From: Promethearchaeota archaeon
Lineage (GTDB): Archaea > Asgardarchaeota > Lokiarchaeia > Sigyniarchaeales > SOKP01
Assembly (NCBI GenBank): GCA_016840165.1
Contig: JAEOSU010000029.1
Location: 12,966-76,965 of the forward strand
Length of the DNA: 64,000 bases
Reading direction: 5' to 3'
The position numbers and the translations under genes are program-made. The notes beneath the pieces are model-generated. The model saw only the letters and a program-made list of their open reading frames with translations. It did no database searches and was not told where the DNA came from. How positions within the stretch are numbered: the first letter of the stretch is position 1; each line of letters opens with the position of its first letter. Of this stretch, positions 44,105 through 51,751 are shown in pieces.

Positions 44105-44857
44105 ATGAAGATTCATTCTTTATTCATTCTAAACAAAACTGGCGCTTGTATCTACAGTAGAAATTTCACAGAAGATTTTAGAAATATCGAACCTAACTTG
44201 ATTACGCCTTTTTTTTCAGCAATTTTCTCATTTTCAGAAAACGTAATCTCACAAAAGACACCGGAGGTATTGGAAATGGGAGGATTTCGATTTGTCTTTC
44301 AAATAAAGGAAGAATTTATTTATACGATATTATCAGATTCTAGTGTAAGCTTGCTTTTTATAAAATCACGTTTGAAAACTATTACTAAGGAATTCGAAAA
44401 TTTTTTGGAACAAAATGCAATTGAAGATTATGAAATAGTTCAGAACGAAGAATTTGATGAAAAAATAGACGGAATTATCACGGGGGATGATATCATCACC
44501 AATAGTAAAGTTCTTTATAAAAAAATCATAGATCTTATTAAAAAACTAGTTTATGAAAATGAAATTTTAGGAGCTGCTTTATTTGCTATTAATGGAAAGG
44601 TTATCTATACCTCTCTTCCACAAAATATACTATTATCCTCTATCAAAGAATTGGAAATTCGTTTTATGGTGGCTAATGAGTTTGATGAGACCTTCTATAG
44701 TCTAGAAAACGATCAAAGAGTTTTTTCTAAGCGTATTAGAATTCCGTGGAAACTAGAACCCCTAATAATTGTAGTTCTATTTGACTCTGGTGTACCTACT
44801 GGTATGGCTGAAGTAAACTTAGATAAAATAGTTAAAAATATTGAAAATATTATCTAA
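44105..44857 (+). CDS. Longin-like + roadblock-like two-domain protein
   Basis: IHSLFILNKTGACIYSRNF...LITPFFSAIFSFS; second domain EILGAALFAINGKVIYTSLP. Confidence 0.75.
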   Translation: MKIHSLFILNKTGACIYSRNFTEDFRNIEPNLITPFFSAIFSFSENVISQKTPEVLEMGGFRFVFQIKEEFIYTILSDSSVSLLFIKSRLKTITKEFENFLEQNAIEDYEIVQNEEFDEKIDGIITGDDIITNSKVLYKKIIDLIKKLVYENEILGAALFAINGKVIYTSLPQNILLSSIKELEIRFMVANEFDETFYSLENDQRVFSKRIRIPWKLEPLIIVVLFDSGVPTGMAEVNLDKIVKNIENII

Positions 44858-46462: not shown

Positions 46463-46957
46463 ATGGCTTCAGAATATGCAATCCTCGCAAAACTGGGCGG
46501 GTTCGTTGGAAGTAATCCTGAAATCGTAAGTTCCTATCCTCCTTACACTGCTGTAGGGAACGAAACAGAAATACTGAACTCATGTTTTCCACTTGGTGCA
46601 AAAGCAGGAAAGTTTTTTGAAGATAGATTTCGTAAGTATATAGCGTTATCCTATGTTTTTAAAGTGCGAAAAAGCGCAGAAAGAGATGATCTTTTTTCAT
46701 TTTCCGTCCTTTTACATAAACGTGACAAGGTGGAAATATACAAGAAAGTATTAACTGAACTAATAAACATTTTAGAAAGCAATGGACGATTATCTGAGAG
46801 TGTGCTTACACAATATCATCAAAAAATTTATGAGGGTATAAATTCAGAGTCAGATATTTTAATTGAGGATCTACTAATTGATTTTTCGAGAATTTTTAAA
46901 GAAGTTAAAGCAAAAGTTCTTAAACAAAAACCACAATTAAAAGGGAGTTTTTTCTAA
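46463..46957 (+). CDS. Stand-alone uDENN/longin-like protein
   Basis: PEIVSSYP...ILNSCFPLG matches the uDENN P-x-I-x-x-x-YP...CFP-x-G pattern; SYVFKVRKSAERDDLFSFSVLL hairpin. Confidence 0.65.
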   Translation: MASEYAILAKLGGFVGSNPEIVSSYPPYTAVGNETEILNSCFPLGAKAGKFFEDRFRKYIALSYVFKVRKSAERDDLFSFSVLLHKRDKVEIYKKVLTELINILESNGRLSESVLTQYHQKIYEGINSESDILIEDLLIDFSRIFKEVKAKVLKQKPQLKGSFF

Positions 46958-47601
46958 TGGCAGAAGACATATTATTGACAAATTTACAATTCAGTGGATA
47001 TATTTTAAGTGCTATTATAATACCTTTGGCAACAATAATTCTAGGTAGAAAATTATTTAAAGAAAAAGCTATAACAGGATCTTTCAATCACGTTAAGCTA
47101 ATTACCTTCAGCATTTTTGCTTGTTTCTCAATTATGAGTGTGTTAGAGTTGATAGTTGAAATGAGTTGGTTTCCCCTACTCAGCGAAATCTTTGGCTTTA
47201 ATATTAATAGCGTCAATCTTTATTCAATATTAATTGGTACCATGGTATCATTAGGTCTTACCTTGGTTTTCTATGCAAATCGATGGGAAATGTTCTATTA
47301 TACTGCACTTTTTTTTTTTGGTGGAATGGTAATCTTCTATTATTTTACTGGATTTGATGCTTGGCTTGAAAGTTATATACACTTCGCAGGTCTCTGTAGT
47401 TTAGTTTTTATGTATATCACTAGTTTTCGTATTAAAGATAACGGAGCACTGGGATTGGCAATCTTTTATACACTAGTATTTAGTGTATTAATATGGGGTA
47501 TGCCCTATTTTACTCAAATTATAATTCTTTCATATAATGCATTCCTTCTTATGTTTTCATTTGGACTCTTCAAACCTTTTAAACAGGAGGTAGCAGAGTA
47601 A
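46957..47601 (+). CDS. 7-TM membrane protein A
   Basis: 214 aa, seven hydrophobic segments; TAATG overlap with the upstream gene. Confidence 0.8.
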   Translation: MAEDILLTNLQFSGYILSAIIIPLATIILGRKLFKEKAITGSFNHVKLITFSIFACFSIMSVLELIVEMSWFPLLSEIFGFNINSVNLYSILIGTMVSLGLTLVFYANRWEMFYYTALFFFGGMVIFYYFTGFDAWLESYIHFAGLCSLVFMYITSFRIKDNGALGLAIFYTLVFSVLIWGMPYFTQIIILSYNAFLLMFSFGLFKPFKQEVAE

Positions 47602-47602
47602 A

Positions 47603-48253
47603 ATGTCAAATTTAGCATATTCTATATGTGAAATAATAATTATCATATTTTGTGTCTTGACTCTTTTCCCAATTATTCAATCTTGGCGAGACACTAAGAA
47701 TAGGATGTATATAGCTGTTTTTACTTTGACACTTGGAATTATTGGTTATTCGATAGCTAATTTACTAACATATTTATTTGAAATTGACACTACTGCATAC
47801 TTGATTGGAGGACTTCGATTTGGCTATATCCTTGGATATATGCTGGCTACAATTCAGTTCGAATTTATGCTTTACCTAAGGCGACTCATTAAATTATATA
47901 CTCTACCATTTATAATTGCATTTTATTTGATGTTAGGAAATATTTTAGTGATTAATAGTATTCCTTTCATTATATACCTAGCATTTATTACTTTTGTCCC
48001 AGCTTATATCCTTTTAAGAGATGGAAAAAGAAAACATAATGGATTAGCGTTCGGTATGGGAATGCTTTTTCTGCTATGGGGTATTGGACAAATGTTTCCA
48101 ATAACCATTGTGATTGCACTATTTCGAACTGTAGCTGTTTTCTCTTTCTTCTTAGGTACGCGTGGATTTTACGAAAAATACATCTTCCCACGGCAAGAAG
48201 AAGAAGAAAAAATCATGGGAACATGGATCTCTAAGTTAGTAGTTAAAGATTAA
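47603..48253 (+). CDS. 7-TM membrane protein B
   Basis: 216 aa, seven hydrophobic segments and charged tail EEEEKIMGTWISKL; starts 1 nt after the stop of A. Confidence 0.8.
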   Translation: MSNLAYSICEIIIIIFCVLTLFPIIQSWRDTKNRMYIAVFTLTLGIIGYSIANLLTYLFEIDTTAYLIGGLRFGYILGYMLATIQFEFMLYLRRLIKLYTLPFIIAFYLMLGNILVINSIPFIIYLAFITFVPAYILLRDGKRKHNGLAFGMGMLFLLWGIGQMFPITIVIALFRTVAVFSFFLGTRGFYEKYIFPRQEEEEKIMGTWISKLVVKD

Positions 48254-48433: not shown

Positions 48434-49330
48434 ATGGCAGTTAAGAGTTTATTACGAAGGATTTTTACCAAAGAAAAGAAGATTGTAATCTGTGGTCTAG
48501 ATTCAGCAGGCAAAACAACTATGGTATCATTCCTTCAGAATGGAACCTTCATGGAACACACTCCAACCATGGGAAAAGAGATGACTACCATGGAAATTCA
48601 AGGCATAAGGATTAATATTATGGATATGGGAGGGCAAAAAGATTTCAGAGAGTTATGGACTGGCGAAGCCAATCATGCAGAATGTGTGATATTCATGATC
48701 GATGCCTATGCTCGGAAGAGATTTAATGAAGCTCGAGATGAATTATGGAAATTATCAAATGTTTTAAAAAAAAAACCGTTAGTCGTTCTAGCAAATAAGT
48801 ATGACCTCCATCCTGTTGCTCAGATTAGTGAGATAATTGATGTATTAGAACTTAAAAGATTACCTTCATTCGAAGTTCTACCTATATCATGTAAAACAGG
48901 TTATGGGATAGTAAGAGCATTCATGAAAATCTACTATAAATTAACTGGAAAGCAACTAACAAGACGCTTAAGTGTTAAAGGAGTGACAGTTTTCGACAAA
49001 GCCGGTATTCCACTTACCTCATCCTCAAATCAAGATATTTTACAAGGAGGATTATTTACCGCTATCAGCAGTTTTGTACAGGAATCCTTTAATTCAGAAC
49101 TCAACCAACTAAAGATTGGTAATCATATCATTGTCTTCAAACGTTCTAAAAACTTATTAGGGTCATTAGTGCTTAGTGATTCAGATAATATTGATCCCCA
49201 AGAAGCAGAAGATGGTTTAAGCGAACTTCTTTGTCATTTAGAAAATATGTGTCCCGAATTGGGAAGTGATCAATTAGAACCTCAGAAGATAGAATACTTA
49301 CTCGACCAATATGCTTCAAACTTATTGTAA
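48434..49330 (+). CDS. Arf-family GTPase with C-terminal roadblock/longin-like domain
   Basis: Amphipathic MAVKSLLRRIF; GLDSAGKTT, PTMG, DMGGQ..FRELW, LANKYD, SCKTG; C-domain VTVFDKAGIPL..GGLFTAISSFVQE. Confidence 0.9.
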   Translation: MAVKSLLRRIFTKEKKIVICGLDSAGKTTMVSFLQNGTFMEHTPTMGKEMTTMEIQGIRINIMDMGGQKDFRELWTGEANHAECVIFMIDAYARKRFNEARDELWKLSNVLKKKPLVVLANKYDLHPVAQISEIIDVLELKRLPSFEVLPISCKTGYGIVRAFMKIYYKLTGKQLTRRLSVKGVTVFDKAGIPLTSSSNQDILQGGLFTAISSFVQESFNSELNQLKIGNHIIVFKRSKNLLGSLVLSDSDNIDPQEAEDGLSELLCHLENMCPELGSDQLEPQKIEYLLDQYASNLL

Positions 49331-49378: not shown

Positions 49379-51751
49379 TTAAAATAAAGAGTTTAATTTA
49401 TTATCAAAGCTTTTGGAAATATTTTCCTTCATATTTTCTATACTATCTTTAAATTCACTAATATGCCTATTTAACTCTTGTTCTAACCTTGAATCTAAAG
49501 ATGTTGATTTTTCTAAGCTCTCAACTGCGGAAAAATATTCATTTTTTTCTAAATAGCAATGTCCCAAGAAGAGCCATGCCATAGCGTGGTCAGGTTCGAT
49601 TTCCGTTACCTTCTTATAGATATCAATCGCTTTATTAAGTTGGTTCTTCAACTTATAGGCATTTGCCATATTAAAGAAAGCCTCGGTATAGATAGGCTCA
49701 ATTTCAATTGCTTTTTCATATGATTCAATAGCTTCATCATATTCTTTTTTCTTAGTATAGACCAAACCCATGTGATTCCATGATTTTACATGGTTTTTAG
49801 TAAGATCTAAAGCTTTCTTAAATGAAGCTATGGCTTCATCATATTGCGCTTTATGAGAATTTGCTATTCCGATATAAAAGTAAGCATTGATATGAGTACT
49901 GTCGAGCTCAAGCGCTTTTTCACAGTCTCCAATCGCATGATCGAAATTATTAGTTTCAATTTCCTTTTTCGCTTTATTTATCAATTGGTTTTTATAATTA
50001 GTCTTAATGGGTACTTTATCCTTATACTCTGAGCTCTCGATTAAATCGTTTACCCGTATTGCTTTCTCGAAAAATTCGAAGCTATCTAAATAATTTCGAC
50101 TATCTGCTAACTGATTTGCTTGTTCTACAATGAGTTTGATTTCAGAATAGTGAACTTCATCAATAGCTAACTTAATTTTATTCATCTCTTCAAAACGGCG
50201 TTGTTCATCAACAATAGTTTTAGCATATTCCATTTTTTTATCTAGCTTCTCTAATTCTTTTTCAAATTTTTTCTGTTCTTCGACTAGATCTCCTCTCCCA
50301 ACTAAATCTTTTAATTCTGCTTGATAAATTAAACTCTTTATCTTGGCTATTTCCTCTTCCATTATTTCATTTAAGTACATCTTATTGGTAATATCCATAG
50401 CTTTTGTAAAGATTTCCAACGCTTCATTATAATTTTTTTGAGTAAGAAATGCTTTTCCTTCGACTAAGATTTCATTTATTTGAGATGAAAAAGCTTTATT
50501 AACAGAATCCTTTAATTTGTTTAATTCTTCATTTTCCTCTTCCCTAATAGGGATTTTCTTTGCAATACTAATCGCAGCATATAATTCATTTACAGCTCCT
50601 TCATAGTCTTTTTGCGCCAGTTTCCTTAGAGAATTGTCTCTTAATAAATCAATTCTGGTTAAACACACTTTTTTAATTAAATTTGAAATATTACTTACTT
50701 GGGTTTCTTTCTCCTTAGATTCAGCCATGTTTTCTGCGATATCTAAAGCTTCAGTAAAATCTCTAATTGCTTGATTCACTATGGTAAGATCTTGTGCATA
50801 ATATTCTCTGCCAGTTAATTCCTTACCTTTTTCTATCAAAGGCTCGATTCGAGACAAATAAACTGGATTTAATGCATCAGCAGAGACACTATTGATGTTT
50901 CGCATTACTTTCTCTTTTTGTTCTGATTCAAACATTTTCCTAGCAACCTCAAGAGCACTTTCAAACTCTTTTACGGCCTCTTTGAAATTATTTTGTGAAT
51001 AGAGTGATTTACCTTTTTCTAAGAGTGGTTCAATCAAGGTTGAATAGATTTGGTTTATAATAGTTTTTAGATTAATTGTTTGCGTTGTTTTTAAGTCAGA
51101 TTCATAAAATTTCTCTGTTATCTTTAAAGCATCCTTATAGGTTTCAATTGCTTCATAATGATTTCCCGTAGCCTTCAATTTATCTCCTTGTTCAGTTAAA
51201 AGGGTCACTTGACGGGAATATACTTCATTTGTGGTGTTTTTAATACGATCAATTATCTCGTGGTTTGGCTTAGTTTTATAAACTTTCTGAGCTTTGATTA
51301 AAGTATCTTTCAGTACATTTATTGCATTTTCATATCTATCCTCTTTCACTAATACTCCTGCCTTGTAAATTGTTTCCTCTAATTGATTATGGGTGATAGC
51401 ATTGTTAATTTCCTCAATTTCGTCATCTCTTAGTTCTTTTTCCTCGATTTTATCAGCGATTCTCATTGCCTCTTCATAAGTTTTATAAGCTCTATCATAA
51501 TCATTCTCATTCATAAAATTATAAGCCCTATTAGTAATATCGATAATCTCAATAACATAGATTTGATCAATTTCTGCTTTAAGATTTTCAATCTCATCAC
51601 GTTTTTCTTCAGGCTCCTTAACTCTATCCTCAATAAATTGTATGCCTTCTAAAAGTTTCTCGACTGCTTTATTATATTTTCTTTCTCCTTTTAGAGCTTC
51701 TGACTCTTCCATGATTGAATTTAATTTTTTTAAATCTGACTTTTTTACCAT
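49379..51751 (-). CDS. Helical-repeat protein with C-terminal canonical TPRs
   Basis: 790 aa; about 60-aa helical units, then 34-aa TPRs (WNHMGLVY..YDEAIESYEKAIEIEP). Confidence 0.85.
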   Translation of the reverse strand: MVKKSDLKKLNSIMEESEALKGERKYNKAVEKLLEGIQFIEDRVKEPEEKRDEIENLKAEIDQIYVIEIIDITNRAYNFMNENDYDRAYKTYEEAMRIADKIEEKELRDDEIEEINNAITHNQLEETIYKAGVLVKEDRYENAINVLKDTLIKAQKVYKTKPNHEIIDRIKNTTNEVYSRQVTLLTEQGDKLKATGNHYEAIETYKDALKITEKFYESDLKTTQTINLKTIINQIYSTLIEPLLEKGKSLYSQNNFKEAVKEFESALEVARKMFESEQKEKVMRNINSVSADALNPVYLSRIEPLIEKGKELTGREYYAQDLTIVNQAIRDFTEALDIAENMAESKEKETQVSNISNLIKKVCLTRIDLLRDNSLRKLAQKDYEGAVNELYAAISIAKKIPIREEENEELNKLKDSVNKAFSSQINEILVEGKAFLTQKNYNEALEIFTKAMDITNKMYLNEIMEEEIAKIKSLIYQAELKDLVGRGDLVEEQKKFEKELEKLDKKMEYAKTIVDEQRRFEEMNKIKLAIDEVHYSEIKLIVEQANQLADSRNYLDSFEFFEKAIRVNDLIESSEYKDKVPIKTNYKNQLINKAKKEIETNNFDHAIGDCEKALELDSTHINAYFYIGIANSHKAQYDEAIASFKKALDLTKNHVKSWNHMGLVYTKKKEYDEAIESYEKAIEIEPIYTEAFFNMANAYKLKNQLNKAIDIYKKVTEIEPDHAMAWLFLGHCYLEKNEYFSAVESLEKSTSLDSRLEQELNRHISEFKDSIENMKENISKSFDNKLNSLF

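Follow-up and report, generated by a model that had tools for sequence, protein, structure and literature searches.

The window analysed here is a 64,000-nucleotide stretch of DNA from a Promethearchaeota archaeon (assembly GCA_016840165.1, contig JAEOSU010000029.1, positions 12,966 to 76,965 of the forward strand). It carries a gene for a small longin protein and, further downstream on the same strand, a gene for a GTPase of the Arf family, with two genes for membrane proteins between them. An initial annotation, drawn from the sequence alone, had proposed that arginine 74 (R74) of the longin protein is placed like the catalytic arginine fingers of FLCN, SMCR8 and NPRL2, which are GTPase-activating proteins (GAPs) of eukaryotes. 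Each part of this proposal that could be checked in silico held up, and the proposal is supported. The most likely reading, held with moderate confidence, is that the longin protein is an arginine-finger GAP for the co-encoded GTPase. The relevant features of the two genes are as follows.

46463..46957, + strand: gene for the 164-amino-acid, stand-alone NPRL2-like longin (translation of the open reading frame).
46496..46519, + strand: beta1-beta2 loop G12-G13-F-V-G-S17-N18-P19, located where eukaryotic GAP longins have their "GP motif".
46586..46606, + strand: loop F42-P43-L-G45-A-K-A48, from alpha1 to beta3, the third element of the predicted interface.
46682..46684, + strand: codon of R74, a residue of the beta4-beta5 loop and the candidate arginine finger; confirmed as AGA at the position first assigned to it.
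46682..46693, + strand: R74-D75-D76-L77 motif at the start of beta5, invariant within the close clade.
46850..46954, + strand: C-terminal extension past the canonical longin, modeled as a beta-hairpin (132-139) and a helix (141-154).
48434..49330, + strand: gene for the 298-amino-acid GTPase, with an Arf-family G domain (1-175) and a C-terminal domain of longin topology (176-298), from Pfam (Arf, 7e-35) and an AlphaFold2 model.
48635..48637, + strand: codon of Gln68, the catalytic switch II glutamine, in D64-M-G-G-Q68.

The longin protein has no match to any Pfam or NCBIfam family in scans of the protein and 48 homologues. Its public copies, which come from Asgard metagenome genomes (Promethearchaeota, Hodarchaeales, and Heimdall- and Hermod-named), are all called "hypothetical protein". 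In the AlphaFold2 model (predicted local distance difference test score, pLDDT, 85.7; predicted template modeling score, pTM, 0.81), the elements run beta1 (5-11), beta2 (20-25), alpha1 (34-41), beta3 (51-56), beta4 (59-68), beta5 (76-85), alpha2 (90-106) and alpha3 (112-128), and a hairpin (132-139) and a helix (141-154) follow alpha3. This is the element order of the longin fold (b-b-a-b-b-b-a-a), and longin structures fill the lists of structural matches. The loop that joins beta4 to beta5 (69-75) holds R74; the mean pLDDT around residues 71-80 is 75, below the rest of the model.

A structure search identified the N-lobes of NPRL2/Npr2 as the closest solved structures, in keeping with the kinship to FLCN- and NPRL2-type longins that had been suggested at the outset. 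NPRL2, a GAP subunit, and its partner NPRL3 match the structure best, ahead of the longins of guanine nucleotide exchange factors (GEFs). Searching the ESM Atlas returned eukaryotic NPR2 and NPRL3 clusters with template modeling scores of 0.69-0.71 over 148-152 residues, and a language-model search matched an archaeal cluster in which 19% of the members carry PF06218. The NPRL2 N-lobe match, which involves chain residues up to 173, surpasses the other longins because of the C-terminal extension. In the model, the entire protein, extension included, looks like the N-lobe of NPRL2 or NPRL3. It ends at residue 164, and a C-lobe of the NPRL2/NPRL3 type is absent.

The eukaryotic reference sequences used in the initial annotation proved correct against the PDB chain sequences: FLCN residues 153-173, with R164, were confirmed letter for letter, and NPRL2 R78 was located in residues 64-89. 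The segment first singled out, 46646-46714, encodes L62-L84 and includes the peptide SYVFKVRKSAERDDLFSFSVL (S63-L83), which had been aligned without gaps to the FLCN hairpin. That alignment was borne out: with arginine placed on arginine, it is the best placement along the protein (BLOSUM62 score +20, 5 of 21 identities). The same score was reached by 63 of 2000 shuffles (p about 0.03), and the resemblance to FLCN is real but weak and does not form a strong part of the case. The next helix, IYKKVLTELINILESNGRLS, corresponds to residues 92-111, and the AlphaFold2 model has a helix at 90-106.

The comparison with NPRL2 came out differently. R74 had been described as close in position to NPRL2 R78, and this stands; an alignment to the NPRL2 peptide, however, needs gaps, as the ungapped arginine-on-arginine register scores -11 in BLOSUM62, with no similarity unless gaps are allowed. 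The alignment of the longin family to the NPRL2 N-lobe by hhalign is non-significant (probability 0.67%, E 0.085) and covers 129 columns in the same order; the NPRL2 alignment was shallow, with vertebrate sequences only, and just its register was used. That register places M1 on C5, P19 on P21 of the NPRL2 GP motif, and R74 on R78. The structural alignment to NPRL2 begins with residue 1 on residue 5, the same register. This evidence is consistent with R74 being the equivalent of NPRL2 R78, but it is not proof. NPRL2 R78 is on a loop of the longin domain (PMC8534245), and R84 of yeast is in the Npr2 N-lobe according to the literature. The GP motif of eukaryotic GAP longins lies just before beta2, next to the arginine (PMC12290439).

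An exhaustive HMMER search recovered 59 representative clusters, and a six-frame search found the family in 89 of 400 Asgard genomes, G000 included. Variability at R74 would have counted against the arginine-finger proposal. Instead, the residue is kept in 36 of 36 close homologues, where the whole R74-D75-D76-L77 motif is invariant, and in 47 of 48 homologues that extend down to 24% identity (mean column identity 30%), the single exception having an arginine one column over. Among further members from diverse Asgard loci, most of them beside a GTPase gene, 27 of 28 retain it, and the exception is a broken gene. Even three paralogues with no GTPase within 4 kb keep R74. In the set of 48, only nine positions are conserved as strongly as R74: L11, G13, S17, P26, P43, G45, Y64, F66 and I122. 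P43 and G45 are nearly invariant in the F42-A48 loop. P19 is kept in 43 of the 48 sequences; the residue before it is N, not G, and distant members read G-L or G-P.

The number of family members per genome varies. The window's own genome has a single copy, and in the survey, which scored nine candidates per genome, up to nine matches were found per genome in some other families. The expanded genomes are G081-G092 (family f18) and G011-G041 (f13), and most of the copies examined there adjoin their own short Arf-like GTPase, so that the expansion looks like paralogous growth of regulator-GTPase pairs. In the window's genus, 21 of 41 genomes matched the longin family, a count that is not proof of absence in the others. 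A dedicated search found no longer or fused forms, which is weak evidence.

The probable substrate of the longin protein is the 298-amino-acid GTPase. It fits the Arf family, N-terminal helix included, as indicated by the Pfam match, by its motifs and by its structural matches. The Arf-type motifs GLDxAGKT, PTMG, DxGGQ and NKxD are conserved among its homologues, most of which have an MGIF... N-terminus. The initial annotation had remarked that the GTPase keeps its catalytic glutamine in DMGGQ; this is correct, and Gln68 is invariant in 24 GTPase homologues. The nearest solved structures to the G domain are the Asgard protein GerdArfR1 (36% identity) and Arf1 and Arl proteins, while Gtr1 and Rag chains align over both domains of the GTPase at 17-18% identity. 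The C-terminal domain has longin topology, yet it shows no detectable similarity to the stand-alone longin by hhalign; the idea that the two are recent paralogues was dropped on this non-significant result. The window's GTPase starts with MAVKSLL... (48434-48466, + strand), and most homologues start with MGIF... or MGLF..., as do Arf proteins with Gly2. Judged from these sequences, the Arf-like Gly2 is lost in the window's lineage.

A complex of the G domain and the longin, with GTP and Mg, was co-folded in three runs alongside three controls; the alignments had 24 rows for the G domain and 48 for the longin. The interface score ipSAE was 0.84-0.85 in the three runs, compared with 0.00 for the best of the three controls; contact agreement between runs was 100%, and the partner pLDDT was at least 87. 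When the tool was calibrated, 58 of 80 solved complexes and 2 of 110 mismatched pairs attained this ipSAE mark, counts that are only a rough guide to the longin-GTPase co-fold because it used its own alignments and included ligands. The GTPase contributes P-loop residues 23-24, switch I residues 41-49 and switch II residues 68-70, among them Gln68, to the interface, and the longin contributes residues 11-13, 15-19, 42-48, 65, 67 and 74-77. The R74-L77 motif touches T43, P44 and M46 of switch I, and longin residues 11 and 16-18 touch Gln68; the beta1-beta2 loop also touches D23 and S24 of the P-loop. The tool scores protein-protein contacts and leaves ligands unscored, so the placement of R74 relative to GTP is not part of the score. 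Half of the 20 most conserved longin positions fall inside the 21-residue interface (hypergeometric p = 1e-5).

These results bear on the alternative that R74 is conserved for folding only, for example through a salt bridge with D75 or D76 that closes the hairpin, and that the linkage of the two genes reflects co-regulation with no direct contact between the products. The conserved acidic residues D75 and D76 could indeed pair with R74, and the lower model confidence at residues 71-80 would fit as well. Against this, the co-fold scored far higher than its controls, a single predicted contact face gathers the conserved positions, and the adjacency of the genes survives three gene orders across families (see below), so a purely structural role for R74 is highly improbable. 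The analysis shows the fold, the conservation and the gene linkage, and it predicts an interface at the active site; it is very likely that the longin protein is a direct regulator, of some kind, of the co-encoded GTPase.

GTPase activation is the most likely form of this regulation. In the cell, the longin protein would dock on the GTP-bound G domain through one conserved face composed of the beta1-beta2 loop (G12...S17-N18-P19), the P43-x-G45 loop and the beta4-beta5 hairpin. R74 would then enter the nucleotide pocket and be inserted beside Gln68, stabilizing the transition state and thereby stimulating hydrolysis, as NPRL2 R78, FLCN R164 and SMCR8 R147 do.

The remaining genes of the cluster lie between the longin and GTPase genes.

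46957..47601, + strand: gene for a 214-amino-acid multi-pass membrane protein, no family found; its start overlaps the longin stop codon (TAATG).
47603..48253, + strand: gene for a 216-amino-acid multi-pass membrane protein, no family found; it starts 1 nucleotide after the 214-amino-acid gene.

The GTPase gene begins 180 nucleotides after the second of these. In a sample made up of homologue look-ups and 50 loci from other genomes, an Arf-family GTPase gene adjoins the longin gene in most loci examined, in arrangements that differ between clades. The close clade keeps the longin gene followed by the two membrane-protein genes, and the GTPase gene follows in turn where the flank is long enough (L001, and L003 in two open reading frames); at L032, also in the close clade, the GTPase gene is upstream of the longin gene. 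Other clades of the same order have GTPase, longin and then the two membrane proteins; across the order, both membrane proteins are co-translated with the longin, and the 214-amino-acid membrane-protein gene is syntenic at every locus of the order with enough flank. In two distant families, the longin gene sits beside a short GTPase gene of about 175 codons, in either order and with no membrane-protein genes. The interruption at L003 (6924-7907), where the partner GTPase gene is broken into open reading frames of 84 and 236 amino acids, is probably a frameshift or a metagenome assembly error, which left the gene uncalled there.

In a further alternative, the longin serves as effector or adaptor: it links the GTPase in its GTP-bound state with the two membrane proteins and leaves the nucleotide cycle unchanged, with R74 as a mere interface residue. 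This is improbable, because the distant families keep both the longin-GTPase pair and R74 in the absence of the membrane proteins, and because the predicted contact with the catalytic glutamine and the P-loop would be unusual for an effector. On the GAP model, the two co-transcribed membrane proteins of the close clade would probably place or control the longin-GTPase pair at the membrane. The two membrane proteins have no significant similarity to each other (BLASTP E 0.6), and the sole lead from their family search is HisKA_7TM, at chance level (0.78). Their language-model look-alikes include Nanobdellota clusters.

Several considerations weigh against a GAP function. In eukaryotes, longin GAPs depend on pairing as longin heterodimers and carry large C-lobes or DENN domains, and no second longin subunit was identified here: the genome has only one copy of the family, and conservation of a 250-amino-acid neighbor with a longin-like N-terminus is limited to close relatives. 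Comparisons by hhalign, Pfam and PDB profile searches gave no significant similarity in sequence to NPRL2, FLCN or SMCR8. PF06218 (NPR2) has no match at E <= 1 in the longin protein, its 48 homologues or the whole genome; PF11704 was not matched either, and searches with profiles against PDB sequences gave chance matches only. The high co-fold score may derive in part from likeness to the solved complexes SMCR8-ARF1, GATOR1-Rag and FLCN-RagC. Finally, among longin and roadblock regulators of GTPases, the majority act as GEFs or platforms rather than as GAPs.

Another alternative is that the longin binds the GTPase as an exchange factor or as a platform independent of nucleotide state, in the manner of Mon1-Ccz1, TRAPP, the DENN proteins or Ragulator, with R74 touching the P-loop or switch I (e.g., the conserved D23) and not the phosphates. 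Such a role appears rather unlikely. As described above, NPRL2 and NPRL3, not the GEF longins, are the best structural matches. The protein has just 164 residues, with no DENN core, and uDENN matches occur in only 2 of 48 family members, both below the cut-off. In addition, an invariant arginine in the beta4-beta5 loop beside a GP-type motif is the reported signature of GAP longins, said to be absent in non-GAP longins (PMC12290439).

Eukaryotes control nutrient signaling and lysosomal traffic through longin GAPs (GATOR1, folliculin and C9orf72-SMCR8). The closest parallel to the protein described here is the N-lobe of NPRL2/Npr2, the arginine-finger GAP subunit of GATOR1/SEACIT for RagA/Gtr1, which resembles it in overall fold and in arginine placement. 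The differences are nonetheless considerable: the Asgard longin has no detectable sequence homology to NPRL2, no C-lobe and no DEPDC5 or NPRL3 partner, it has 164 amino acids compared with 380, and the G domain of the neighboring GTPase is of the Arf type and not the Rag type. FLCN (R164, a GAP for RagC) and SMCR8 (R147, a GAP for ARF1) share the longin fold with the Asgard protein, and SMCR8-C9orf72 acts on an Arf GTPase (PMC8213707), as proposed for the Asgard longin.

MglB, a roadblock homodimer, contributes no arginine finger, and its partner MglA has an intrinsic arginine. The likeness to MglB-MglA is that of a prokaryotic regulator, small in size and belonging to the roadblock/longin superfamily, whose gene lies beside that of its Ras-like GTPase; the Asgard regulator differs from MglB in having the longin fold and in carrying the arginine itself. 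The MglB-MglA system is cited as a GAP system in a study (PMC10933270) which also noted that GTPase genes of MK-D1 do not, as a rule, share operons with longin or roadblock genes, making it difficult to pair Asgard GTPases with GAPs or GEFs from genome layout.

This kind of protein is already known from the same phylum. NPRL2-like longin families in Asgard genomes have been described (Liu et al., bioRxiv 10.1101/2020.10.19.343400), and some Asgard longins of the FLCN/SMCR8 type are reported to retain the GP motif together with the arginine finger and are possibly GAPs, with the partner left open as either ArfR or Rag GTPases (PMC12290439). The published Asgard longins, which are stand-alone or fused, have been proposed as possible GAPs without a named cognate GTPase, and an Asgard Arf preprint says nothing about GAPs or neighboring genes. 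What appears, by comparison with the published descriptions, to be new is an unannotated family that escapes Pfam, its conserved pairing with an Arf-family GTPase, and the predicted active-site interface. Neither the operon link to an Arf-like GTPase nor the predicted active-site interface was found in these papers. The locus offers a candidate Asgard pair, an NPRL2-like longin with an invariant arginine that is tied by gene order to one Arf-family GTPase. With two small and probably soluble proteins, the ancestry of the longin GAP mechanism becomes testable at the bench.

The partner GTPase has a Rag-like two-domain layout. A broader and more tentative proposal, which is possible but doubtful, is that the longin and the Arf-like GTPase, joined in the window's taxonomic order by the two co-translated membrane proteins, form a self-contained, membrane-bound switch with a one-subunit arginine-finger GAP. 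The membrane proteins would serve as sensor or anchor, and the C-terminal longin of the GTPase would replace the second longin subunit. Such a switch would represent an archaeal precursor to the modules GATOR1-Rag and C9orf72/SMCR8-Arf.

One locus unites the two longin domains in a single reading frame. At L057:3638-4465 (- strand; genome G276, contig C8), a 275-amino-acid open reading frame consists of a complete family longin (...EHRHDLFSF..., arginine kept) joined directly to the C-terminal longin-like domain of the partner GTPase; the locus lacks the G domain and the genes for both membrane proteins. The frame is either what an in-frame deletion left behind or a genuine double-longin fusion; if real, the fusion hints at joint working of the two longin domains.

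Two other genes of the window deserve mention. The 250-amino-acid protein with the longin-like N-terminus (44105-44857, + strand; weak Sybindin and Fuz_longin_1 matches, E 1e-3 to 6e-3) is encoded two genes upstream of the longin gene, with a gene for a flavin adenine dinucleotide (FAD) oxidoreductase between them. It was rejected as a core second longin subunit, being syntenic only in close relatives (L003). On the other side, a gene for a 790-amino-acid protein rich in tetratricopeptide repeats (49379-51751, - strand) is convergent with the GTPase gene, and a 785-amino-acid counterpart is present in L003.
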